Virus record (IMG/VR): IMGVR_UViG_3300048694_001252
Location: 1-64,000 of that record
Source: a virus
Length of the DNA: 64,000 nucleotides
Reading direction: 5' to 3' (one strand)
Position 1 is the stretch's first letter. Each line of letters opens with the position of its first letter. The notes below the pieces were generated by a model that worked only from the letters and a program-made list of their open reading frames with translations, made no database searches and was not told where the DNA came from. Below, in pieces: positions 14,302 through 35,269 of the stretch. The position numbers and the translations under genes were made by a program.

Positions 14302-16467
14302 CTACTTTGACAAAGCTAGTGCTTTTATTCTCGCCAGATCTTCATAAAAACTATCGGTTACTGCTCCGCGGTGGTCCATGGAATCAGTTGAGTCTTCGTT
14401 TGGACCCGAAAACGTGGCCAGATTATCGCCTTCGGCCATATCTTCATCGTCATCCCAACCTTTGGCTTTGCTAGGAAAATAACGATGTACCGCTCTATCA
14501 TGACTTGGTACCAGCTTCAAGCGACTGGGAGAAATATACCAACCACGTCCATCTTTGTCTTCGATTCGAACACGACGATCATATGGATCACCAATCATTC
14601 TGAATACTTCACCGCCGTCACCATCCATTTCGTCACGTACAAAACAACCATCGTAAAGTTCAGTATCGTCGTATTCGCCTTCCGCCACACCTTGCTTCGT
14701 ACGTTTCTTAGCTTGCTGAGACCGATTATAATCATCCAGCGAAACAATTTTAAAGTTAAAAGCGTCGAGCGAATGTCTACCACCACTCATGCGAGTTAGG
14801 TACGATTTTGCGGCTGCTATTGAAGGGAACGCGCCGCCGTGCATTGGATAGTTCTGGGAACGTAATCCAGTTTTAGGGTTTACCAAAACATATCCACTGG
14901 TATCTAAATATCTTCTACTGTTTTCCTCCATATCTTTTTCTTTGGGTTTAGGTACAGGATTACCAGCTAAATCTTTGTCACCGATGTAAACTCCCCGTTC
15001 ATCATGGCTTAGCGGATTCTTTTCAAACGGTTTGCCTTTACGTGCTGCTTGGGCTGCTTCCACATCCTGCATGGCATCTTGCCAATAGCCTTCCGCCATG
15101 GGCTGCTGTGGTTGCGCAGCCGGCTGTGCCACCGGTGCAGCAGCCGGTTCAGGCGAGGGTTCTGCGGCAGGCGCGGGTTCAGGCGCGGGTTCTTGGGCTT
15201 GGGCATCAAGATCGACATCAACTCCGTTTTCTTCCAACCAGGCCTCGATCACGGGCGCGGCATCAGCATCGGCACCGTTGGAACGGCTGAGATTCTGTAG
15301 CCGGTCACGCAGATCATCCAGCATCTGATGATCCTCAGGATCATCGCGATCATAACCTATGATATCTTCCAGCTGAGGTATCACGTTCATGCCATCTTCA
15401 CCCACTGCTAGAGGTTTTTTGGCCAGCAGTTCCTGGATTTGATCCACTGCTTCATGATCATGGGCTAGGTCACTGAGACCTTCTGCCACTGTGTTGACCC
15501 AGTTTTCAAATATATCAGCTTCTTTCATGGCAGTTCCTTGAATACGTGCCAGCAAAGGCAATGCTGCCTCTACTCGCGTATCGATATGCTGCTCCACAAA
15601 CATGTCTCTGAGATTTTCTACCAGAGTATCAGCCGCAGTGATCTCAGCTGGCTGCCAGGATTCGAAATATCGACCATAACCACGACTGTGACCTAACTGC
15701 TGGAGATTGGAACGTAGCTGTTGATAGTACTCGCGGGCCTGTTCTACCAACTGTTGCCGCTGCCCTTCCAGTACCTGACCCTGGTGTGCACGATGGAATC
15801 GAGCCAGCACCTTCATTTCCTGGATTATTTCGGCTATGTGCTGACCGCGTATGTCATAGGGACGACCACCCTGGCGCACATGTTCCAGCATGGCGCGACC
15901 GCCTGCGAGATTGGTAAAAGGCAAAAGGAAGCGCTCACCATCCTGGGTTTCCACAAACAGTTTTTCCACATAGCGATAGCGAGCATCAGTTTCGCCTAGA
16001 GTGCGATTGTGTCGTATCATGAGTCGGGCCTGGGTGGGCTGTCCCATGTAGCTGACCTGGCGCGTACCATAATAACTTTCAAATAGGCTTTCCGAAATAG
16101 CCGACATGCTGGCCATGTAGTGCTTGAGATTACTGATATTTTGTGGGCTGAATGTGTTGAAGCCGTTGTGCGTGGCAAATTGTCCCAGTTGATGCAGGAA
16201 ATCATACCATTCGTCTTTGTCCCGGGGGGATTCCATGCTGCGTCCCATGCTGTCCCCAAAAAACAACAGTAATTCTTTGTCATCACTCAGGATCAACACA
16301 GCATTGCCATAATCGCGGCCACCGCTGCTGCGATAATCAAACCGTATGATATGCGCTTTTGATGGTGTGACATCTTGCCCGGTCCGGGGGTCTTTGGTAA
16401 CGGGATCAAATCCCCGAGTGACCAAAAGGTCATAAAGTCTTTGGGCTACTGTTTGTGTTTGTGCCAT
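14302..16467 (-). CDS. Probable virion head protein; N-terminal core plus C-terminal modules delimited by AEG/MEE motifs
   Basis: 721 aa; TAAATA 7 nt upstream; TVAEG, PMAEG, DMEE, QGVAEG, DMAEG sites; AT-rich C-terminal part. Confidence 0.7.
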   Translation of the reverse strand: MAQTQTVAQRLYDLLVTRGFDPVTKDPRTGQDVTPSKAHIIRFDYRSSGGRDYGNAVLILSDDKELLLFFGDSMGRSMESPRDKDEWYDFLHQLGQFATHNGFNTFSPQNISNLKHYMASMSAISESLFESYYGTRQVSYMGQPTQARLMIRHNRTLGETDARYRYVEKLFVETQDGERFLLPFTNLAGGRAMLEHVRQGGRPYDIRGQHIAEIIQEMKVLARFHRAHQGQVLEGQRQQLVEQAREYYQQLRSNLQQLGHSRGYGRYFESWQPAEITAADTLVENLRDMFVEQHIDTRVEAALPLLARIQGTAMKEADIFENWVNTVAEGLSDLAHDHEAVDQIQELLAKKPLAVGEDGMNVIPQLEDIIGYDRDDPEDHQMLDDLRDRLQNLSRSNGADADAAPVIEAWLEENGVDVDLDAQAQEPAPEPAPAAEPSPEPAAAPVAQPAAQPQQPMAEGYWQDAMQDVEAAQAARKGKPFEKNPLSHDERGVYIGDKDLAGNPVPKPKEKDMEENSRRYLDTSGYVLVNPKTGLRSQNYPMHGGAFPSIAAAKSYLTRMSGGRHSLDAFNFKIVSLDDYNRSQQAKKRTKQGVAEGEYDDTELYDGCFVRDEMDGDGGEVFRMIGDPYDRRVRIEDKDGRGWYISPSRLKLVPSHDRAVHRYFPSKAKGWDDDEDMAEGDNLATFSGPNEDSTDSMDHRGAVTDSFYEDLARIKALALSK
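14678..14694 (-). repeat. 17-bp QGVAEG repeat, copy 1 (CAAGGTGTGGCGGAAGG)
   Basis: Exact match to the copy at 24566-24582. Confidence 0.9.
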
Positions 16468-16477
16468 AGTAAGCTAT

Positions 16478-18049
16478 TTAGCGTAAAACTGCAAAGAAGG
16501 GCATGGGTTCAATTATGGAATCAGTATGATCCTTGATCTGTTGATCCAACTCAGCATGGTAGGTCTGTAACAGCATCAACATTCGTACGATCAGGATGGT
16601 AGACATGACCAAATCATCGGTTTCACCCGGCTTGGCTGCATAGCTCACACCGTGCGCCACAAAGGTCTTGAGCTCGCTTATGAGTGGTTTGCTGTGTATG
16701 ATCATGCGACGACTTTCCAGCAGCACCTTGAACTTGTTACAGGCCGTGATCTTGCTCTTGGGCGTGGTGTTGAATCCTTTGCGCCATCGACGTTGTCCTA
16801 TCACGGAATTGTCCGATAAGAAATAGCCCTGGATGTTTTCCTCACCGTATTCCGATATCGAGATCAGGGCCGCTTCGCCTATGGTGTTGTTTTCCACGGA
16901 GTAATAGATGCTCTGCGGATCCTTGACCACGCTGTTGATTTCACGCACGATGTCGGCCAAGATACGTACTTGTTCGGGGATGGTAGTACGATTATGTTGC
17001 CACTCGGCCACTTGTTCGGTGGTGCCGGCTTCAAATACCTGGATGGCCGCGGGATCTCCACCGGTGCCCAGGCTGGGATCCAAGGACACCACATAGATGC
17101 TGTTGGGGCGTATGTCACGATACCAACGAACCTGCCCGGTTTTGCGCAGGGGTTCGCGACCTTCTAGATCGATCAAGGTAGTGGGTGCTATCAAGGTCTC
17201 ATCGTTGATGATGAATTCGCACTGCATTTCGCGACGGAATCGATCGTCGCCCAGCTGGGCACGTTGTTCATCGGCCCAGGCCTGATCACGATCGGGATGC
17301 TCATGCCAATAACTCCGGAAAGCCCGGAAACCATTGATACCCAGTTCCGTGGTATTGCCAAACTCATCTAGGCATTTGTTGGCACCTTTCCACAGGAACG
17401 CAAACTGATCTTCATCCGAATTGGGTGTGCTGGTAATGATACATTTACCGCCTGTGGATAGCGTGGGCGCTATGGAAGTCCAGAATTCTCGACCTATGGT
17501 GGGACGCACGAATGCGAACTCGTCAGCATACAGTAAAGAAATACTCATACCCCGACCTGTGGTCTCTGTGGTTGTTTGGCTTACTATGCGGCTACCGTTT
17601 TCAAATTCCAGGCTGCCCTTGTTGTAGCTGGTACAACCGGCTCGTATATGGTTTGGGCACAGCTCATAGGCATAGCGTATGCGCTGCATGATTTCCTGAG
17701 CACCGGTATACTTGTGAGCCGCTATCAAGATCGTGCTGTCCGGAACGAACATGGCGTACCAGAGCAGATATCCCGCGGCCGAAGTTGACTTGCCGGTCTG
17801 GCGCGGCATGAGGCTGATGCTGTTGCGATAGTTGTGATATGTGTCGATCAGACGCTTCTGATAATCAAACGGATGATATACCATCTTGCCCCGGGTAGGA
17901 TGCTGGATGTAGAAGAAGTTGTCCAGGAAATACTGTGGACCGGTCACCGGATCGGCGCAGAGAGCAAATTCTTGAATCTCTTGTTCGGTATATCTTTCGC
18001 GGCGATGCGGACTTTTTACCAGTACTGTTTCAAGTTGGTTGCGTTGCAT
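16478..18049 (-). CDS. gp17: Terminase large subunit (T4 gp17-like)
   Basis: PRQTGKS Walker A, LLYADEFAFV Walker B, ITSTPN, RNase H-like DPSLGTGGD and DDLVM. Confidence 0.95.
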   Translation of the reverse strand: MQRNQLETVLVKSPHRRERYTEQEIQEFALCADPVTGPQYFLDNFFYIQHPTRGKMVYHPFDYQKRLIDTYHNYRNSISLMPRQTGKSTSAAGYLLWYAMFVPDSTILIAAHKYTGAQEIMQRIRYAYELCPNHIRAGCTSYNKGSLEFENGSRIVSQTTTETTGRGMSISLLYADEFAFVRPTIGREFWTSIAPTLSTGGKCIITSTPNSDEDQFAFLWKGANKCLDEFGNTTELGINGFRAFRSYWHEHPDRDQAWADEQRAQLGDDRFRREMQCEFIINDETLIAPTTLIDLEGREPLRKTGQVRWYRDIRPNSIYVVSLDPSLGTGGDPAAIQVFEAGTTEQVAEWQHNRTTIPEQVRILADIVREINSVVKDPQSIYYSVENNTIGEAALISISEYGEENIQGYFLSDNSVIGQRRWRKGFNTTPKSKITACNKFKVLLESRRMIIHSKPLISELKTFVAHGVSYAAKPGETDDLVMSTILIVRMLMLLQTYHAELDQQIKDHTDSIIEPMPFFAVLR

Positions 18050-23604: not shown

Positions 23605-25557
23605 TCACCAGGCTCGGCAGCTCCAATATCTGGCTTTCCAACGCGGACCAGGATTGGCACAGTTGTGGCGGGCCCGGAAGCTCTTGCGGCGTTTTGGGTT
23701 GGATTTTTTGATGCGCATCTTCTTGTCACCAAAGTTGACCTTGACCACATTGCCTTTGGGACCTTTCACATACACTTTGCTTTTCTTTACATCTCCGGCC
23801 ATGGGCTTGCCCAGGGGTACTTCACGTCCTTGGTATTTGGCTTCCATGGGTGCAGGATCATCTACGTCGTATGGATCTTCCGCATTGTGCTGTTTAGCGT
23901 CACGTGAGTCCCACTGTGCTTGTGCATCCTGTTCAGCAGCCTGCTGATATTCTGGGCTGTAGTCTGGATCAGTGATTAGATACTGAATCATGTGATCGTC
24001 AACTTTAGCAGCAATATTGTTACCAGTTACGTCACCACCAGTTAGTTTAACATGTAAATGTCCGGTTTGTGGATCAGGTGTAGCGATATAATTTACATAT
24101 CCTTCTACTTCTTCACCATCGTCACCAATCCAGGTAACATCTGTGCTGCCTTCAAAACTTTCAGGATCGAATCCTTCGTTTTGCAGATGTTCCTCCACGG
24201 TTTCGGACAAGGGTGTGGTCTGAGGTTCTAGACCAGCCAATTCTTGTATGCGGCGCAGGGTTTGATCCGCTTCCGCCACACCTTGCTCTTGGCTCTCACC
24301 AAAACGAAACTTAGGGGCGGCACGTAACAACATTGCCACACCTTTATCAAATTTTGCGCGGTCGTAAAATTTCCCGTTGTTGATACTGGCTAAAATCGTT
24401 TTGACGCCAGGTATTCCCAGTAGTTGATTGGACATAAAATATGTTCTGCCACCTGCGGCCGCATCAACTAAATCCAACAAATCTTCGGGGTAAAGACGAT
24501 CTTCATTTTTTGGTGATCCATATTTGGCCCAGATTTTTTCTGCGATACGTTTTGCTTGCGAAGAGCCTTCCGCCACACCTTGTTCTCTATATTTCTTGGC
24601 GACATCTATTTCAATATCACCGTTGCCATTGCGCTCACTCCAGGCTGCAAATCGTTTTCCGTTGATAGTAACCAATTCACCACTTGCATTGGAAATATAT
24701 TCTGCATTGTCATCTAGCAACTCACGGTTAACACGATTTACATCACGCAACCACTTTTCATGGTTTCCGTAGGTCTCAAATCTTTTCTGCAATAAATCTC
24801 TAGTATCAACTGATGGCAAATTTACTCCAGAACGTGGCCCAAGCATATAATCGCTGGAACTTAAACTACCTGGCAAGCCTGCCTCCGCTACACCTTGCTC
24901 ATTGACATTATCTCTGACATATAATGTATCTTTGGGGAATTTTGCGATCCACTTAGCACCGGCTGGAGTTATCTTGTAAATCCCATCCAACGATGAGATT
25001 ATACCCTTTTTTACTAATTTTGGTAGGAATCTTTCCAGGAAATCTCTTTTGATAAACACATTGCCATGAAGCGCACTGGCTAATTTACGTCCAGACAATC
25101 CAGAATCTTCGACCTGCTGTAACTGTAGTAACGTTCTTGCGACATCTTTTCGATTGAACGTATGTTGAAACTTGCCTTCCGCCACACCTTTGACATGCCA
25201 AGTTTTATGGCATTGATGGCATTCTTTCTCACCATCACTGTAGGTTTTGATGTCGGTACTGTAACAGCCTGGGCAATGTGTACTGGTGGTGGGTTTGGCA
25301 CCGGTACCTGACTTTGTCTTGGGTTCTGGTTCGTTCTTTTGATCTTGGGCCATGCCTTGCTCTTCCAGCAGTCCATAGCTTTCCAAGATCCGCATCATGT
25401 CTTCGTCTGCGGCCAAGACCACACCATCTTCCACAACGTCAACTATGTGTGACTCTACCAGGCATTCTTCACGGATGTTTATGGCAAAGTCATCACCCAC
25501 GGCCGGTGCTGCGACCCAGGATTCTGCTTCGTTGATATGGTCTCGCAGTGTTTTCAT
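23605..25557 (-). CDS. Modular polyprotein with QGVAE-delimited cassettes and a basic C-terminal RRKSFRARHNC...ARYWSCRAW domain
   Basis: 650 aa; MKTLRDHINE N-terminus; EQGMAQ, KGVAEG, EQGVAEA, EQGVAEG, EQGVAEA separate unrelated modules. Confidence 0.8.
   Translation of the reverse strand: MKTLRDHINEAESWVAAPAVGDDFAINIREECLVESHIVDVVEDGVVLAADEDMMRILESYGLLEEQGMAQDQKNEPEPKTKSGTGAKPTTSTHCPGCYSTDIKTYSDGEKECHQCHKTWHVKGVAEGKFQHTFNRKDVARTLLQLQQVEDSGLSGRKLASALHGNVFIKRDFLERFLPKLVKKGIISSLDGIYKITPAGAKWIAKFPKDTLYVRDNVNEQGVAEAGLPGSLSSSDYMLGPRSGVNLPSVDTRDLLQKRFETYGNHEKWLRDVNRVNRELLDDNAEYISNASGELVTINGKRFAAWSERNGNGDIEIDVAKKYREQGVAEGSSQAKRIAEKIWAKYGSPKNEDRLYPEDLLDLVDAAAGGRTYFMSNQLLGIPGVKTILASINNGKFYDRAKFDKGVAMLLRAAPKFRFGESQEQGVAEADQTLRRIQELAGLEPQTTPLSETVEEHLQNEGFDPESFEGSTDVTWIGDDGEEVEGYVNYIATPDPQTGHLHVKLTGGDVTGNNIAAKVDDHMIQYLITDPDYSPEYQQAAEQDAQAQWDSRDAKQHNAEDPYDVDDPAPMEAKYQGREVPLGKPMAGDVKKSKVYVKGPKGNVVKVNFGDKKMRIKKSNPKRRKSFRARHNCANPGPRWKARYWSCRAW
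24269..25191 (-). repeat. Array of four 17-bp direct repeats spaced 297/315/294 bp, separated by unique AT-rich in-frame inserts
   Basis: Copies at 24269-24285, 24566-24582, 24881-24897, 25175-25191; core AAGGTGTGGCGGAAG exact in three, with two synonymous changes in the 24881 copy. Confidence 0.9.
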
Positions 25558-25559
25558 GG

Positions 25560-27575
25560 TTAGGCCTTATATGCTTTCCACAAGCGAGTCATGTCCTGGA
25601 GACTGGACTCAAACGCTTGATTTTCTTTATTGCTGCTGAGTTTATCCTGTAGGGCCTTTCCCGCCATCTGACCTGCCAGGCTTGCAGCACCTCGTGTCAG
25701 TGCACTGGCACCGGATCCCACGGCAGTGCGAGCTAGAGCAGCACCAATAGCCGGTAACACTTCGTCTAGTTTTTGGTCTTTTTCTGCTGCGGCTTGTGTC
25801 ATGGGCTCTTCCCGATCACCATCTTGGTCGATGTCCAAGAAATCGGGTTTAGCAGCTTCCTGCACCCCGGCCAGTTCCCGGATACGCTCCAGGCTTTCGT
25901 CCATGGGCCGATCACATTCGCATTTGCTTTCGTACATGCCACATTCCATGCATTTGTTTTCGTCGAGATCTTCGGTTTCCTGCACACGCACCGCAGTGGT
26001 AGGCATCACGGTCTGACCATCGCCAGCAACATCAGTCTTGGGTTTGTTGACACCACCTGAGTATTGCAGGGCATCGGAGTTTGTTTCGGTGTTGGTGGGC
26101 CATTCCGGTTGATTTTCATCTACCTGCGTGGCACAGGCACAGGGCTCTTGACCACAGCTGGGGCAGGCATGTGAATCCGGGGTGTGCGGCATGACCCCCA
26201 CACCAGCACGTTTTAGGAGCTCAATCAAATCACCTGCATCTTCTTCGGTGGCTGTGACTGTGACTGAATCATTGCCTTCGCTACTGCGGCTGATGTTTAC
26301 GCTCATGCTTTCAGAGATCATGGCTTCCAGTTCACGGTTCATGCTGTCATAGATGCCTTTACCATACTGCATTTTACCACCCGGAGATTTCTTGGGGACA
26401 TCCGCGGATTCTGACTTGGCTCGCGGTGCCGGGGCTGTCGCGACCGATCCCGCTACTGTGGAAGTTTCTTCCACTTCTTTTTTCTTGGTGGGCAGACCTT
26501 TTTCTTTGGTAGCAGCAAACTTATGCAGTTCCTTCTTGCTCATCTTGGCCATCTCTCGGCTGGCACCGCGTAGTTCGGATTTGGGGATTTCACCCTTCTG
26601 TGCCGCATGTGCGATGCCGGCAGCGCGACGCTGGGCCACGCTCACGGCTTTTTCACCCAGTGGTTGTTCCTGGCCCTCTTCACCAGTGGCCATTTCCCCA
26701 TCACGTTCGTGTTGGGTCTGCATGTAATCATCCACAGTGGACATCATGCCTTCGATCTTGGTCAACTTCATTTGTACCCATTCAGGCAAATCCTCGCGAT
26801 CGGCCAGGATCTTTTCCAGGGCCTGGGCATGACGCACGATAGTATGGATCTGATCCTTGGCTTGATCGCCTTCGTTGCCGTATTCGCCCGCATCATCAGG
26901 CTGGGCTCCGGGTGGTAGCTCCTCAGCTATGGCGCCTTTGCGATGCAGCTTGGATGTGCCCTTGACCTTGGCTCCGATTTTTTTGCCCCGGCCGGCACCC
27001 ACGGCCTTGCGGCCCATATGACGTGGCTCACCGTCGTCTTGGTCATCGGCATCGGGTTCATCTGTCTGGCTCGCGCCACCATAGCGTTTGCCCTGCACTG
27101 ATTTTACCGGCAGATCGGCCAGTTTGAGTTCTTCGACTTTATGGGTGGCAGGCTTTTTCTTGGTTGTCTTTTTGACTACCTGCAGCACACCCTTGGCATC
27201 ACGCCGGAGAGTTTCTTGGCCACCAGATGCTTTTTCCACTGCACGGGTCAGATCGGGTGCTAGATCTCGACCACTGACCTTGGTCTTGGCCTTGGGCGGT
27301 TGGTTGAACGAAGAAGATTTACGCACACCAAACTTGTCATAGTCATCGCTGCTGAAGGGTTTTGGTTTGCCTTCCTCCACACCTTGCTTGGCCTGGCGAG
27401 CCGCTTGCTTCATGGGTTCGTGGCGATTGCCATCTTGGTCCAGATCCAAAAAATCAGGCTTGGCCGCTTCGCCTACTTTGTGGCGCAGTTTGTCCAACAC
27501 AGCACCTTCTGTGAGCTGTTCCTTGCCTTGGGCCAGTTTGGCCAACTTTTTGTTCATGTCGTAAAAAAATGTCAT
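25560..27575 (-). CDS. Modular probable prohead core/internal protein (DUF3008-like segment, two DxDxDG repeats, LPEWVQ helix module)
   Basis: 671 aa; AAKPDFLD(L/I)DQDG twice; AVSVAQRRAAGIA...LRGASREMAKMSKKEL..FAATKEKGLP; many (L/I/V)xE sites. Confidence 0.75.
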   Translation of the reverse strand: MTFFYDMNKKLAKLAQGKEQLTEGAVLDKLRHKVGEAAKPDFLDLDQDGNRHEPMKQAARQAKQGVEEGKPKPFSSDDYDKFGVRKSSSFNQPPKAKTKVSGRDLAPDLTRAVEKASGGQETLRRDAKGVLQVVKKTTKKKPATHKVEELKLADLPVKSVQGKRYGGASQTDEPDADDQDDGEPRHMGRKAVGAGRGKKIGAKVKGTSKLHRKGAIAEELPPGAQPDDAGEYGNEGDQAKDQIHTIVRHAQALEKILADREDLPEWVQMKLTKIEGMMSTVDDYMQTQHERDGEMATGEEGQEQPLGEKAVSVAQRRAAGIAHAAQKGEIPKSELRGASREMAKMSKKELHKFAATKEKGLPTKKKEVEETSTVAGSVATAPAPRAKSESADVPKKSPGGKMQYGKGIYDSMNRELEAMISESMSVNISRSSEGNDSVTVTATEEDAGDLIELLKRAGVGVMPHTPDSHACPSCGQEPCACATQVDENQPEWPTNTETNSDALQYSGGVNKPKTDVAGDGQTVMPTTAVRVQETEDLDENKCMECGMYESKCECDRPMDESLERIRELAGVQEAAKPDFLDIDQDGDREEPMTQAAAEKDQKLDEVLPAIGAALARTAVGSGASALTRGAASLAGQMAGKALQDKLSSNKENQAFESSLQDMTRLWKAYKA
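27370..27386 (-). repeat. 17-bp repeat copy (CAAGGTGTGGAGGAAGG, QGVEEG)
   Basis: One mismatch to the consensus. Confidence 0.8.
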
Positions 27576-28745: not shown

Positions 28746-29177
28746 TCAGCTCTTGCCCTGATGGAACAATTGATCTTCATTGAGTACCCGAAAAACTATG
28801 CCCTGTTTACGGCACCAGACCTGGGCCGCGGCCCACTTGTGATGATTCAGCGCCACGATCATGCGATCTTTCTGGGTCATGCGACCTTCTATCAGGCTCT
28901 GCTTCCGGGGTTTGATTTCGATCAGCTCGGTGCACACCTTGTTGTGCCGAGTGCGATAACGTATCAGGATGTCGGGCACATAGCTGGTCATCTTGCCCGT
29001 GAACGGATTGCGGTAGGGAATGAATACTGGTTCCGAAGCCCACTCTAACACATTTTCATTGCGATCACAAAAGGTAAAGAATGAAAATTCCCAGCTGGAT
29101 CTATAGGTGGGTAAACCTTTGCCCAGGTATTTGCCGGGGTTGGTGGGTTGGAATTTGCCCCGAGCCCAATGTGTCAT
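28746..29177 (-). CDS. gp4: Head completion nuclease (T4 gp4-like, PD-(D/E)xK)
   Basis: GKFQPTNPGKYLG, YRSSWE, W.SE...IPY, YVPD, IEIKP, KWAAA. Confidence 0.88.
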   Translation of the reverse strand: MTHWARGKFQPTNPGKYLGKGLPTYRSSWEFSFFTFCDRNENVLEWASEPVFIPYRNPFTGKMTSYVPDILIRYRTRHNKVCTELIEIKPRKQSLIEGRMTQKDRMIVALNHHKWAAAQVWCRKQGIVFRVLNEDQLFHQGKS

Positions 29178-30697: not shown

Positions 30698-31339
30698 TTA
30701 GACCGCGGTCTGCGTGGTGCCAGCGCCAGTTACCACATCGCCTAGCGTACGACCAATCGCAGTACCAACACCAGTACCATTGGGTGTCTGGTTAGCGTTG
30801 TCATATGTGATGGCCAGAGTGATAGTGACTGGTGCGTTTTCCGCATAGCTCAACTGATTGTAATTGGCGTTCTTGATATAACAACCATACAGTTCCCAGG
30901 TTTCAAGAACCACGGGAGTAGCTGCGCCGTTGCCACCGTCCAGGATTTCTACCTTGGTCAAGAACTTGTAGTCGATACCCGAAGCAGCCGATGCCATTTC
31001 CAGGAAGTCCATCTGCTTCTGTAACTGTTCGCCTACCAGTTTGCTGACCGATCCCGAAGCGTCATCACGCAGCTCACAGTTGACATCGGGCCAGCTGGCT
31101 TTACCAGCTAGCTTCAAGGTGCTGTTGTAGATGGGCAACGTGATTTCTTCAAACGTGGGGTTGGGTCGATCAAACGTCATGACCTGTTTGGTCAGTTCGG
31201 TTGTGGGTTTTGAAATACCAAAGTTTTCAAATGATACCCGGAAACGATACTTGAGTTTGGGCATCAACAGGCCCTGGGTGCTCGAGCTCTGATCGCTCGC
31301 CAGGGGCACTGTCATTCGTTGTAGTGAGCTAACTGCCAT
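30698..31339 (-). CDS. gp19: Tail tube protein (gp19-like)
   Basis: PKLKYRFRV, LAGKASW..V...LRDD, W.LYGCY, ITYDNA; directly after sheath. Confidence 0.85.
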   Translation of the reverse strand: MAVSSLQRMTVPLASDQSSSTQGLLMPKLKYRFRVSFENFGISKPTTELTKQVMTFDRPNPTFEEITLPIYNSTLKLAGKASWPDVNCELRDDASGSVSKLVGEQLQKQMDFLEMASAASGIDYKFLTKVEILDGGNGAATPVVLETWELYGCYIKNANYNQLSYAENAPVTITLAITYDNANQTPNGTGVGTAIGRTLGDVVTGAGTTQTAV

Positions 31340-31402: not shown

Positions 31403-34400
31403 TTAGCGTCCTGCTGCTCCAGAGATTTCACCGGTGTTCTTGATGCGCAAGGGGATATAGATAAACTCCACTGCCTTGACCGGTTCTATGGCAATATCAA
31501 CCCAGAGTTCGCTACGATCTATGCGGGCCGGTGTGTTGTTGCTGAGATCGCAAACCACCAGATAGTCATAGATTGCGCGTTTGGCTATCAAATCAATCAT
31601 CAAACTGTTCACAGTATTGGTGATTTCGTTACGAGTGATCTGATCATTGGGCTCAAACAGATACAGCTTGCCAATTTCTTCCAGGCGACCGCGTAGGTAG
31701 CAGATCAAACGTGCCACATTGATACGATCCAGCGCAGTGGTAACTGACAGCGAAGTCTTGTTACCAAAGTTCACGATACCCACACCCGGAATGAACGTGA
31801 TGGGATTTACATTGTGTTCGTACAGGATATCACGCACTGCCTGACTGCAAGAGATTTGTACGAATTCGCCTGTGGCTGCATCAATGTAACCAATCGCTGT
31901 GGCATTGTCCACCACGCCGCGACGTGTACCTGCGGGAGCCAACCAAGGATAGCTCACAGCATCGCTGCGCAGTATGGTACGAACCATCATGTGGCTGGGC
32001 GGTGCTACCACGCTGTTGCCCGATAGATCGTTGGTCTGGCAGCTGGGATAGAATGTGGCCATATAGTTGCTGGTAGCCACCAGGCCATCTTCGGCCGGGA
32101 GACCCAGACCATTGCGGTTTGTGGCCCATTCAACCAGACTGTTACCATCTGGTCCCAGACGCATGGGTGTATCACCCACCACGAACAGGGTGTTGTTGCG
32201 TTCATTGCTGAGCGCAATCATGTTGGGCTCTAGTTCAGGATAGGCCGGGCAAGCGATAATGTTGAACTGGTTCTGTTCTTCACGTGCAGCTTCGCTGGTG
32301 TCAATGGCCGACTTCATGGCCTTGACTATCACCTGGCGCTGGGCCAAGCGTCCACCCCACATAGCACCATTGTCACGATTGCCCGAAGCCGACAACCAGG
32401 TGTTGGTCACTGTGACTATTTGCCAATAGTTCACGTTGGTGCCGGGCGTGTGATTCACATTGGCATTGGACATGGAGATGTAGTTGAAGTCGTTATAGCT
32501 TACATAGCTACCAATGGTATAGGACGTGGTAGGCGACCATGGATCAGCTGGATAGGATGTGCTGTTGAAGTAATCCCGCTGGAAGGTCTTGACGTTGTAA
32601 CCCGAACGTCGTGTGTTGAACATCAACATGCCTTGTGGATATAGCGCAGGATCAGGTGCGTCAAGATCCAGATAATCACTGGTCAACAGACTCACGATAC
32701 TGGGTATGGCATCGCTGATGGGATCTGTGGTACCATTGGGTGCCCAACGTGCGTCAGCAAACAAGATACCGTTCTGTGTGACTTGATCTGTGGTATCGAT
32801 AGAGACCCATTGCGCTTGGCCACTTACCAACTGCCAGCGATAGAGCTTGGGATAGTTTTCCAAATCGCTGGTGTCCAACCAGAGATCACCATACACCAAG
32901 GGACTTTCTGCATCATCATTCTGTGTCATGGGTGCGGTGGCCGAGCATATGGGTCCGCTGGCATTGGTCAGTGTAAGGTCGTAGCCACGAACATCATTGC
33001 TAACGTTCTGATAACCTTGCCATTGACCGTTGTCCTGGATCATGATGTCCACTTGAGTAGCTGTGCTATAATACCACATGGTTCCGTCTGCTGGATCTTG
33101 ATCGGGCGCGGTGTCCATGGCAGTATAGGTGAACAAGGGCGCGGTGACCAAATTAGACAGTATCAATCGACCTGGGGTCGTGAATGATTGGCGAACCTTG
33201 GGCGTTGACAAGGTAAAACCAGCAGTGGTTATTGGATTGCCTGTGCCCGGAGTCAGACTGATCCAACCACCGGCACTGTGAGTGAACACAATATTACCAG
33301 CACTGTTCACCGATGCACTGACATAGGGCACCGCGGCTGCGGATACTGCTGCAATAAAATCAGCCACCGAACCAGTTCCACCTATGGTCACTGTACTGGT
33401 GATGCTGCTAGTGGTTCCGGGTTGGCTACCAGCCATGGCAAAAGTATTACCGGGTGTGAACGCATTGCCGGTGGGTGTACTGGTACCAGTAACGATAGTT
33501 TGTCCAAACGCATACTGTTCCAGGATTTCAAAACACATGGTGTCTAGTGGCACTGTTTCATAGTAGTTGGCCATGGGGTTGATGTAGGTGGTACCCACGG
33601 GAATAGTACGACCACCATTCACAGGATCCAACCCATATATGGCCTGAGATATGCCGTCATATGCGGGTGTTTTCTGAGCTATCCATTCGCCCAGCGTGGC
33701 GCTCCATTTCTTGATACGGATATCCAAGCCATAGTTCACTGTGCTGAGATTGTTCCAGACCGACCCTGTGGGATGTGGTGCTGTGTCAGTGGTTCTCCAG
33801 CGCGGAGCTTGGTAGCTGTAGCTGGCAAGATATGTGGGTGCCAGATAGGTATTGACCGTGATGCCCAGGGCCGCCAGCAGTGCAGCACCTAGATTTGGTC
33901 CTTGTTCGATAGTGATCAATCCACCATCACCAGACGAACCGTCATTTGTGGCTGTGCTATCACAGAACAATTGCAGACGTCCACTTTTGACCATGGCCGA
34001 TACGCCGGTAATGGCCGCATTGTTGATGGCAGTGGCAAATCCTGCCACAGTCAATGCCGTTGATCCTGCGCCCACAGTGACCAGGGTACCATTGATATAC
34101 ATGTTGGCACCATTGGTCAAGCTGTTGGGGGTAGCTGTACCTGCCACTGTGGGCCAGCTCATTTTCCAGTCATCGCTGCCTACCAGTACCCAGACGTTGT
34201 CAGAGTTTTTGTAGTAACCATACATAGGCACACTGAGAGCTGTGATAGCATAATCACCGATGCTGCCATAGCTGGTCACGGGAGTATAATCACCACCAGC
34301 AGCATCCACCACATATTCGACTTCGGTAATGACCAAGGGGGTTTTCACCGTGAATTGAGCTGTGGATTGATTCCATTCCTGGATACCCCACTGCGTGGTC

Positions 34401-34819
34401 GAAGTATCCAACCAATAGGTGCCATTGTTGGCGTTGCCCGTGGGGCGAACCAGACTGGCTGTGAGTTCGGTCAGATTGATGTTTGCACGTTGCACATAGC
34501 AACGATTGGTCACGCCCAGGGCGCTATAGGCAGCCAGCAAACCGTATTCGTTGAGTTCATATCCATTGATGGGAGTACCGGTCGTGGTATTGTAGAAAAA
34601 CGGTACACCAAAAGTGGCTACTAAATCACGTTGGCTTGTGATTAAATAGGTTTTATCGGCATTGGCTGCGGTCGTACCAGCAGCAACGGTTACGCCGTCA
34701 CCAGAAACTTTGTTTTGTGCAGTAGCTATCAAGAAGTAAGGTACAGTGTTGACTGCCGAGGGAATGTATTGGCTTTCGTCAATAACTGTTACTTCTACGC
34801 CAGGTGATGTCAGGGCCAT
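31403..34819 (-). CDS. gp18: Contractile tail sheath protein (gp18-like, enlarged, 1138 aa)
   Basis: MALTSPGVEV, PWLAPAGTRRG, NPI, DRINVARL, FEPND..TR, IEPVKAVEFIYI. Confidence 0.93.
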   Translation of the reverse strand: MALTSPGVEVTVIDESQYIPSAVNTVPYFLIATAQNKVSGDGVTVAAGTTAANADKTYLITSQRDLVATFGVPFFYNTTTGTPINGYELNEYGLLAAYSALGVTNRCYVQRANINLTELTASLVRPTGNANNGTYWLDTSTTQWGIQEWNQSTAQFTVKTPLVITEVEYVVDAAGGDYTPVTSYGSIGDYAITALSVPMYGYYKNSDNVWVLVGSDDWKMSWPTVAGTATPNSLTNGANMYINGTLVTVGAGSTALTVAGFATAINNAAITGVSAMVKSGRLQLFCDSTATNDGSSGDGGLITIEQGPNLGAALLAALGITVNTYLAPTYLASYSYQAPRWRTTDTAPHPTGSVWNNLSTVNYGLDIRIKKWSATLGEWIAQKTPAYDGISQAIYGLDPVNGGRTIPVGTTYINPMANYYETVPLDTMCFEILEQYAFGQTIVTGTSTPTGNAFTPGNTFAMAGSQPGTTSSITSTVTIGGTGSVADFIAAVSAAAVPYVSASVNSAGNIVFTHSAGGWISLTPGTGNPITTAGFTLSTPKVRQSFTTPGRLILSNLVTAPLFTYTAMDTAPDQDPADGTMWYYSTATQVDIMIQDNGQWQGYQNVSNDVRGYDLTLTNASGPICSATAPMTQNDDAESPLVYGDLWLDTSDLENYPKLYRWQLVSGQAQWVSIDTTDQVTQNGILFADARWAPNGTTDPISDAIPSIVSLLTSDYLDLDAPDPALYPQGMLMFNTRRSGYNVKTFQRDYFNSTSYPADPWSPTTSYTIGSYVSYNDFNYISMSNANVNHTPGTNVNYWQIVTVTNTWLSASGNRDNGAMWGGRLAQRQVIVKAMKSAIDTSEAAREEQNQFNIIACPAYPELEPNMIALSNERNNTLFVVGDTPMRLGPDGNSLVEWATNRNGLGLPAEDGLVATSNYMATFYPSCQTNDLSGNSVVAPPSHMMVRTILRSDAVSYPWLAPAGTRRGVVDNATAIGYIDAATGEFVQISCSQAVRDILYEHNVNPITFIPGVGIVNFGNKTSLSVTTALDRINVARLICYLRGRLEEIGKLYLFEPNDQITRNEITNTVNSLMIDLIAKRAIYDYLVVCDLSNNTPARIDRSELWVDIAIEPVKAVEFIYIPLRIKNTGEISGAAGR

Positions 34820-34921
34820 TTTGAGGTTTCCTTGTAAAAAGTTATAGTGATATTTACCGGAAGCCACAAAAAAACCACCGCTAGAACGCCCTTTGGCCAA
34901 GGTTCGTGAGTTAAATAGAGG

Positions 34922-35269
34922 ATGACTCGTCCCATTTGCGCTGCCTGCGGTCAACGTCCCTGTGCCGTAAACTATCACGGCCTGGATCGCATACACTATC
35001 GACGTCGCTGCGAAAATTGTCAACGCCGGAATCGAGGTATACGCCCGCATCGGCCGCGATGGGAGATAGCGGGCTATCGCAAAAAAATAGTGTGTGATCT
35101 ATGCGGATTCCGGGCTAGATACAGTGCCCAGATCCTGGTGTATCACATGGATGGCAGATTGACCAACGTGGAACCCAAAAATCTACGCAGCGTATGCCGT
35201 AACTGCGAAATCGCTGTGTCTAGGGGCGATTCGCCAGCGCGGCCGGGAGATCTGGAACCAGATCTCTGA
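34922..35269 (+). CDS. Zn-finger/HNH-like protein
   Basis: Four CxxC pairs; HMDGRLTN....NLRSVCRNC; TAAATA 4 nt upstream. Confidence 0.7.
   Translation: MTRPICAACGQRPCAVNYHGLDRIHYRRRCENCQRRNRGIRPHRPRWEIAGYRKKIVCDLCGFRARYSAQILVYHMDGRLTNVEPKNLRSVCRNCEIAVSRGDSPARPGDLEPDL

Follow-up and report, generated by a model that had tools for sequence, protein, structure and literature searches.

Which task could a single phage gene serve that strings together several small unrelated domains, among them a winged helix and a zinc ribbon? The question is raised by P0001, an open reading frame (ORF) of 650 residues on the minus strand of the IMG/VR record IMGVR_UViG_3300048694_001252. The window analysed in this study comprises the first 64 kb of this 115,246-bp record. 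As the record is only 33% complete according to CheckV, its source is a giant phage, more precisely an uncultured giant T4-like myovirus. P0001 consists of modules that are exchanged between related proteins at short conserved linkers, and a gp21-type protease is encoded in the same record. By analogy with T4, the most likely mechanism is that P0001 would be targeted to the growing capsid, cut at its linkers and retained there in pieces.

Modules, linkers and cassette exchange in P0001

P0001, which has a mass of 72 kDa if left intact, appears to be built on a frame of three parts: an N-terminal decapeptide resembling the T4 capsid-targeting sequence (CTS), the acidic N module and the basic module at the C-terminus. 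This frame would have received AT-richer cassettes, each ending in (E/K)(Q/K)GVAE followed by Gly or Ala. The features of the gene, with their isoelectric points (pI), are:

23605-25557, minus strand: 650-residue modular ORF P0001, the cassette polyprotein, a single open frame
25528-25557, minus strand: N-terminal decapeptide MKTLRDHINE, resembling the T4 CTS
25360-25527, minus strand: acidic N module, residues 11-66, pI 4.05, 75% identity to the N-terminus of the orthologue P0003
25177-25359, minus strand: zinc-ribbon cassette, residues 67-127, ending VKGVAE
24883-25176, minus strand: winged-helix cassette, residues 128-225, 11 kDa, pI 9.9, ending EQGVAE
24568-24882, minus strand: cassette C3, residues 226-330, pI 5.15, an N-terminal motif and a small alpha+beta domain, ending EQGVAE
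24271-24567, minus strand: cassette C4, residues 331-429, pI 9.3, predicted helical bundle, ending EQGVAE
23842-24270, minus strand: acidic module C5, residues 430-572, pI 4.05, beginning with an LRRIQELAGL motif
23608-23841, minus strand: very basic C-terminal module, residues 573-650, pI 11.2, phrog_7595

The four linkers read VKGVAE|G (E127), EQGVAE|A (E225), EQGVAE|G (E330) and EQGVAE|A (E429). In the 115-kb record, one reading frame contains the peptide GVAE five times, four of these inside P0001, and each other frame at most once. As DNA, the linkers repeat a single 20-nt word: CAA GGT GTG GCG GAA is found in two of the four, its GGT GTG GCG GAA part in three, and the fourth linker has two silent differences. 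The probability expected for the five-codon linker word from local codon usage is 0.013 per copy. Val-Ala-Glu followed by Gly or Ala is kept across about 50 diverged proteins, and a full-text search for QGVAE, GVAEG or QGVAEG as a linker peptide found no phage literature. Residues 65-71, upstream of the zinc module, are a degenerate form, EEQGMAQ. This site (25345-25365, minus strand) reads QGMAQ here and QGMAE in the 94% identical copy of the cassette on the IMG/VR contigs L014 and L015. QGMAQ is a decayed site, and the N module and the zinc ribbon may stay fused.

The linkers mark the borders of what is shared among relatives. The downstream end of homology falls exactly at a G(V/M)AE linker in 12 of 16 zinc-ribbon matches, 21 of 27 C3 matches and six of nine C4 matches. 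On L014 and L015 the DNA match spans nucleotides 198-384 of the gene, the cassette itself being nucleotides 199-381, and the flanking sequences there are unrelated to those in P0001. P0002, a different polyprotein with the N-terminus MHVLDLF..., carries the pair of zinc ribbon and winged helix at 92-99% identity, and the orthologues of P0002 on L016, L017 and L021 have other cassettes in place of the winged helix. Conversely, the P0001 orthologue P0003 shares the N module (75%) and the C-terminal module (100%) and is devoid of the zinc ribbon, the winged helix and C3. The core of C5 (23887-24181, minus strand) shows 96-97% DNA identity to the C-terminal end of a different, 727-residue polyprotein on L016 and L017. 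These patterns identify the cassettes as self-contained units of evolution.

Base composition sets the interior cassettes apart as well: their GC content is 0.405-0.464, with 0.33-0.38 at third codon positions, versus 0.51-0.53 for the frame modules and a window mean of 0.519. Such AT-richer interiors fit an import into a resident frame of N- and C-terminal modules. Within the stretch 24271-25176 (minus strand), the cassettes have a GC content of 0.405-0.448 and are compositionally foreign.

In P0002 the cassette that follows the winged helix is 81% identical to positions 14917-15108 (minus strand) of the window, inside a 721-residue gene beside the terminase. Related phages thus distribute the same modules over their polyprotein genes in different ways. 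Regarding the C5 core, the protein on L016 (2242-2536) and L017 ends with it, with no basic C-terminal module behind.

The sequence-only reading of this DNA had proposed looking for free-standing homologues of the cassettes in other phages. None turned up for the zinc ribbon, the winged helix, C3 or C4 among short proteins, GenBank phages, IMG/VR or metagenomes of the Joint Genome Institute (JGI). A word-indexed search of proteins of 30-356 residues gave 12 matches. Ten of these carry G(V/M/L)AE linkers themselves; the two exceptions are P0040, a protein of 284 residues and several modules with a copy of C3 at its end, and P0043, a fragment that starts within C3. Single-cassette scans of IMG/VR yielded nothing for the winged helix or C3, an alignment-based IMG/VR scan nothing for C4, and a JGI metagenome scan with the winged-helix alignment nothing either. 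By tblastn of the four cassettes against 50,697 GenBank phage records, zero matches and thus no cultured relative were obtained. Free genes are known for other modules of the family, examples being gp56 of Pelagibacter phage Kolga and the 50-residue phrog_16028, which is matched by a module of P0002. A spurious ORF or a chance motif was rejected as explanation of P0001 on account of its conservation and relatives.

Predicted folds of the cassettes

The zinc ribbon had been noticed from the letters as CPGC-x14-CHQC in the module preceding the winged helix, and this holds: C95-P-G-C98 and, after 14 residues, C113-H-Q-C116 form two conserved CxxC knuckles on predicted beta hairpins. The four Cys never vary in an alignment of 15 sequences (the P0001 cassette with 14 relatives of 38-83% identity), and neither do 15 further positions (P30, S34, D36, K38-K45, H51, T53, W54 and G58 in cassette numbering), which include the KTYSDGEK core. 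AlphaFold2 (AF2) models the ribbon as a three-stranded sheet with a predicted local distance difference test score (pLDDT) of about 75, and the Pfam matches Zn_Tnp_IS91, TniQ and Zn_ribbon_19 are all of the zinc-ribbon type, every one below cut-off. The module of about 6.6 kDa is thus a conserved Cys4 zinc ribbon by its sequence, with zinc binding being predicted. The two knuckles, the spacing of 14 residues and the beta hairpins are shared with the ribbons of ribosomal L37ae/L43a, TniQ and IS91 transposase domains, and two relatives of the cassette are labelled L37AE/L43A by JGI. Unlike these ribbons, the cassette has a conserved core of its own, S-T-D-I-K-T-Y-S-D-G-E-K-E, between the knuckles. 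Among the relatives found, it occurs in QGVAE polyproteins only, and in at least 14 of these without the winged helix.

For the next cassette a winged-helix-like domain had been claimed, and the modelling bears this out. The quoted peptides, LSGRKLASAL...FLPKLVKKGII...GIYKITPAGAKW, are indeed present in the module at 24883-25176, where they cover about residues 153-206 within G128-E225. AF2 predicts, at pLDDT 70-85, helices 1-3 followed by a beta-hairpin and one more short helix at the C-terminus. In the joint model of zinc ribbon and winged helix these are helices 70-82, 90-95 and 105-117 and strands 121-124 and 127-130 (model numbering), i.e., the order H1-(b1)-H2-H3-b2-b3 with a hairpin wing after the recognition helix. 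The linker between the two domains has a pLDDT below 50, and they fold separately in this pair model. The winged helix superposes on solved winged-helix proteins, and Foldseek searches against the PDB and against the viral models of BFVD both returned the winged-helix class at weak E-values of about 0.01. Four weak Pfam matches, HTH_45, HVO_A0261_N, Rrf2 and Mrr_N, are likewise all winged-helix families, every one below cut-off. The best of them, HTH_45, reaches 18.9 bits versus a gathering cut-off of 25.5 (E = 0.0015). With phmmer, no match to PDB sequences was obtained at E-values up to 10.

The winged-helix fold is thus well supported, in contrast to membership in a named family. As modelled, the domain is of the minimal PadR / MarR / F93 structural type. 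It resembles F93 of Sulfolobus turreted icosahedral virus (2co5), TA0346 (3elk), SSo2273 (2x4h), PadR and MarR in fold and size, and its sequence pattern of helix 3, Gly and hairpin is like that of PadR and HTH_45, but identity to the structural matches is about 14-22% only. Whereas F93-type proteins are free-standing, the cassette is embedded in a polyprotein. Membership in PadR, MarR or HTH_45 was rejected, all scores lying under the Pfam cut-offs.

The domain is also very rare. A HMMER search of 1.84 billion representative proteins gave one match, P0052 (43% identity), in which the domain occupies residues 779-872 of 1101. P0052 and the near-identical P0053 are encoded on contigs of 61-204 kb. 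Together with a second copy (99% identical) in P0002, the winged helix is known from three protein clusters (P0001, P0002 and P0052/P0053) in a total of about 15 billion sequences. With a pI of 9.9 and 17 Lys and Arg among its 98 residues, the module is basic, and R50, K54 and K58 (cassette numbering), which are spaced i, i+4, i+8 on helix 3, are shared with P0052. DNA binding by the winged helix could equally well turn out true or false.

The two remaining cassettes had not been recognised from the sequence. AF2 resolves them into an alpha+beta domain (C3) and a helical bundle (C4), while a convincing structural match did not emerge for either, the best Foldseek E-value being at least 0.12. 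A PDB sequence-profile search with C3 and C4 returned chance-level matches only, and the ESM Atlas yielded no usable lead. In the model of C3 and C4 together, residues 38-94 form a strand, a helix and a four-stranded sheet (pLDDT 78-89), and C4, which has nine relatives, is a bundle at about 75-87. C3 has 27 relatives, all inside QGVAE polyproteins, and its invariant positions in a clean alignment are D14, G18, R20, N24-L25-P26, W47, D60-D61-N62 and W84. The model begins with 30 residues predicted to be disordered (pLDDT below 50), namely VAE from the linker in front and residues 1-27 of C3. Within this part of C3 (24802-24882, minus strand), D-x-D/S-(H/Y)-M-x-G-x-R-G-(I/V)-N-L-P hardly varies, if at all, among relatives with as little as 28% identity. 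This low-pLDDT stretch may lie outside the fold and be a linear or binding motif that has been conserved.

Whether the cassettes are self-contained folded domains, as had been claimed, can thus be answered for the most part: the zinc ribbon, the winged helix, C3 and C4 are all predicted to be folded, with their ends at the linkers, and disordered cassettes were rejected on these models. The claim does not extend to the N-terminus of C3 nor to the border of C3 and C4, over which a helix is predicted to run. Both structure predictions were built on shallow alignments of 14-15 rows. The fold assignments, taken alone, are very probably correct. As folds they are ordinary; what is new is the identity of the cargo.

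Proposed processing and packaging by analogy with T4

What could be the purpose of joining such domains by nearly identical linkers? The same record encodes a gp21-type protease (PF03420 Peptidase_S77, 82.2 bits versus a cut-off of 27; G000:C1:76943-77362). Next come genes for a scaffold-like protein with a coiled coil and for a capsid protein of the gp23 type, in the gene order of T4. In T4, the CTS is the 10-residue peptide MKTYQEFIAE that takes internal proteins into the prohead (bioRxiv 10.1101/2021.01.19.427310) and is removed from them by gp21 (bioRxiv 10.1101/2021.01.19.427310; PMC3012670). The cut made by this protease lies behind the Glu of L/I-x-E, the classical case being a Glu-Ala bond (PMC9026906). 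The N-terminus of P0001, MKTLRDHINE|A, has the length of the T4 CTS, its MKT start and its I-x-E end. As a peptide of about 10 residues ending in L/I-x-E it matches the T4 pattern, which makes it a putative targeting sequence. Among the family members that start with Met, 40 of 48 have a hydrophobic-x-E at residues 8-16, typically as MxxxDLFxE.

In the proposed mechanism, the decapeptide would carry the precursor into the scaffolding core of the prohead, where the gp21-type protease would cut after the Glu of each V-A-E linker. Such a cut would follow the T4 rule L/I-x-E, P3 being Val and P1' either Gly or Ala. The predicted products comprise pieces of 6.5-12 kDa, which is the size range of the mature T4 internal proteins (IP*), and a C-terminal piece of 25 kDa. 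Folded products of 7-12 kDa, sized like IPI*, IPII* and IPIII*, would stay with the packaged DNA and enter the host, where the winged helix would most likely bind nucleic acid via R50, K54 and K58. Concerning cleavage and packaging, we lean slightly in favour. For the full chain of cassette folds, targeting, cutting, retention, ejection and DNA binding, belief and doubt are evenly balanced.

Several points weigh against this mechanism. T4 sites have Leu or Ile at P3, whereas the linkers of P0001 have Val, and T4 internal proteins are cut once, whereas P0001 has several internal sites. The linker upstream of the zinc cassette, with Gln for Glu in QGMAQ, may stay uncut. The model of C3 and C4 runs one helix (residues 95-124), at a lower confidence of pLDDT 62, over the C3|C4 linker, and such a helix, if real, is a poor protease substrate. 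P0052 has no GVAE linkers, so the winged helix does not need the cassette system. The alignment of this domain effectively comprises two relatives, the two-module model has a mean pLDDT of 64, its Foldseek E-values are as weak as given above, and a winged-helix fold is no proof of DNA binding. Moreover, ejection, DNA binding and any role in the host are drawn from analogy with the T4 internal proteins.

The main rival is that P0001 remains an uncut beads-on-a-string protein of 72 kDa. QGVAE would then be a flexible linker or a recombination joint, and the winged helix and zinc ribbon would act within one multidomain protein, in the infected cell or in the virion. This would agree with the nearly fixed linker DNA, with the modelled helix over the C3|C4 linker and with zinc ribbon and winged helix occurring as a pair in two different polyproteins, and recombination alone would explain an exchange of cassettes exactly at the linker. 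However, a signal used for recombination only need not stay in frame or keep its Glu, whereas V-A-E followed by Gly or Ala persists in the about 50 diverged proteins and fits the motif of the glutamyl-specific gp21 family. CTS-like N-termini are common in the family, and the many polyproteins with a zinc ribbon and no winged helix also speak against the two acting as one protein. An uncut P0001 therefore appears unlikely, although it deserves to be kept in mind.

If P0001 is cut and packaged, its products could still be structural, neutralising charge, organising DNA or filling the core of the capsid, with the identity of each cassette mattering little. A bulk role of this kind has been proposed for the basic internal proteins of T4 and for the inner body of phiKZ. 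Several products are basic (winged helix, pI 9.9; C4, 9.3; C-terminal module, 11.2), as the highly basic and non-essential internal proteins of T4 are (bioRxiv 10.1101/2021.01.19.427310), the lysines of which contact DNA phosphates (PMC3012670), and the fast turnover of cassettes between close relatives fits as well. Yet other modules are strongly acidic (N module and C5, both pI 4.05; C3, pI 5.15), the zinc ribbon keeps about 19 invariant positions, far beyond the needs of metal binding, and C3 keeps an invariant surface-type motif, D-x3-G-x-R-x3-NLP. This specific conservation of zinc ribbon and C3 indicates specific partners and makes a purely structural role improbable. The sequence-only reading had proposed the cassettes as candidate anti-defence or host-takeover proteins. 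In this case winged helix and zinc ribbon would be injected effectors, for example a DNA-binding protein which shields the entering genome or reprograms early transcription. The rapid turnover of cassettes and the extreme rarity of the winged helix would fit an arms-race gene, and in T4 the injected IPI* is an inhibitor of a restriction enzyme and the internal proteins of T-even phages form a diverse defence-countering set (PMC3012670; PMC9026906). As a similarity to known anti-defence proteins was not found, and as the fold is silent on a target, so specific a role appears highly improbable. Distinctly unlikely, too, is a swappable arsenal of injected effectors, in which the head protease would turn a capsid-targeted precursor into mini-proteins of equal number, delivered along with the first DNA to enter the host. 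In such an arsenal the basic winged helix would bind incoming phage DNA or host DNA, with protection or an early reprogramming as the purpose, and cassettes would be exchanged in frame at a linker serving two purposes.

The preferred reading, a targeted and processed precursor, is close to the T4 internal proteins IPI, IPII, IPIII and Alt in the N-terminal peptide of about 10 residues, MKT...(I)-x-E, in a genome that also encodes a gp21-family protease and a gp22/gp23-type head module, and in predicted products of 7-12 kDa, several of them basic, that like the T4 proteins are fast-evolving non-core cargo. Different from T4, where one gene makes one protein with one cut, P0001 combines many unrelated modules with up to four or five internal V-A-E sites. 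A likeness to IPI, IPII, IPIII or Alt was not seen in Pfam and PHROG scans of P0001, in which a direct profile comparison was not included. In phiKZ, 201phi2-1 and SPN3US, the proteases gp175 / gp245 cut at S/A/G-x-E, and many head-internal proteins of phiKZ-type giant phages are processed and delivered to the host (PMC9026906; PMC7411985). P0001 shares with these its origin in a giant phage and a diverged protease of the gp21 type, cleaving behind Glu, the cutting of P0001 itself being putative. Homology to the phiKZ-type ejection or inner-body proteins was not detected, and these proteins are trimmed of propeptides, whereas P0001 is a row of exchangeable cassettes joined by a linker that is conserved in its DNA.

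Provided that the cassettes are released and injected, the gene shows which cargo is delivered ahead of the phage's own gene expression: an orphan domain of a DNA-binding type, a conserved zinc module and two folds without relatives. With 60-105 residues, they would be small and separately expressible candidates for new early-acting phage proteins, and the idea of T4 internal proteins would extend from one gene per protein to one precursor of many exchangeable proteins. An arsenal as outlined above would even resemble an integron, with injected proteins as its cassettes and orphan folds making up the stock. Even if nothing is injected, the winged helix stands out as rare.

Genomic setting and frame modules

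P0001 lies in the structural region of the window, among the following genes:

16478-18049: large terminase
28746-29177: head-closure protein
30698-31339: tube
31403-35050: sheath

Its upstream neighbour is a further modular polyprotein gene (25560-27575; 671 residues) that contains DUF3008 according to Pfam. P0001 starts 2 nt past the stop of this gene.

Scanned as a whole, P0001 belongs to no Pfam family, and among the PHROGs its C-terminal module alone finds a match (phrog_7595, E = 6.9e-8). This module ends in RHNCANPGPRWKARYWSCRAW and is 74% identical to gp56 of Kolga, a free-standing gene of 79 residues. It (23608-23841, minus strand) is also present in Roseobacter phages and in Nitrosopumilaceae spindle-shaped viruses.

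The LRRIQELAGL motif at the beginning of C5 (24229-24258, minus strand) recurs as LERIRELAGV in the 671-residue neighbour (25863-25892, minus strand), and is present twice in P0003. A similar C-terminus, ...VIELKRLAGL, is found on the scaffold-like protein encoded next to the protease (G000:C1, about 75.7 kb). Judged by this resemblance, the motif could dock to the capsid or the scaffold.

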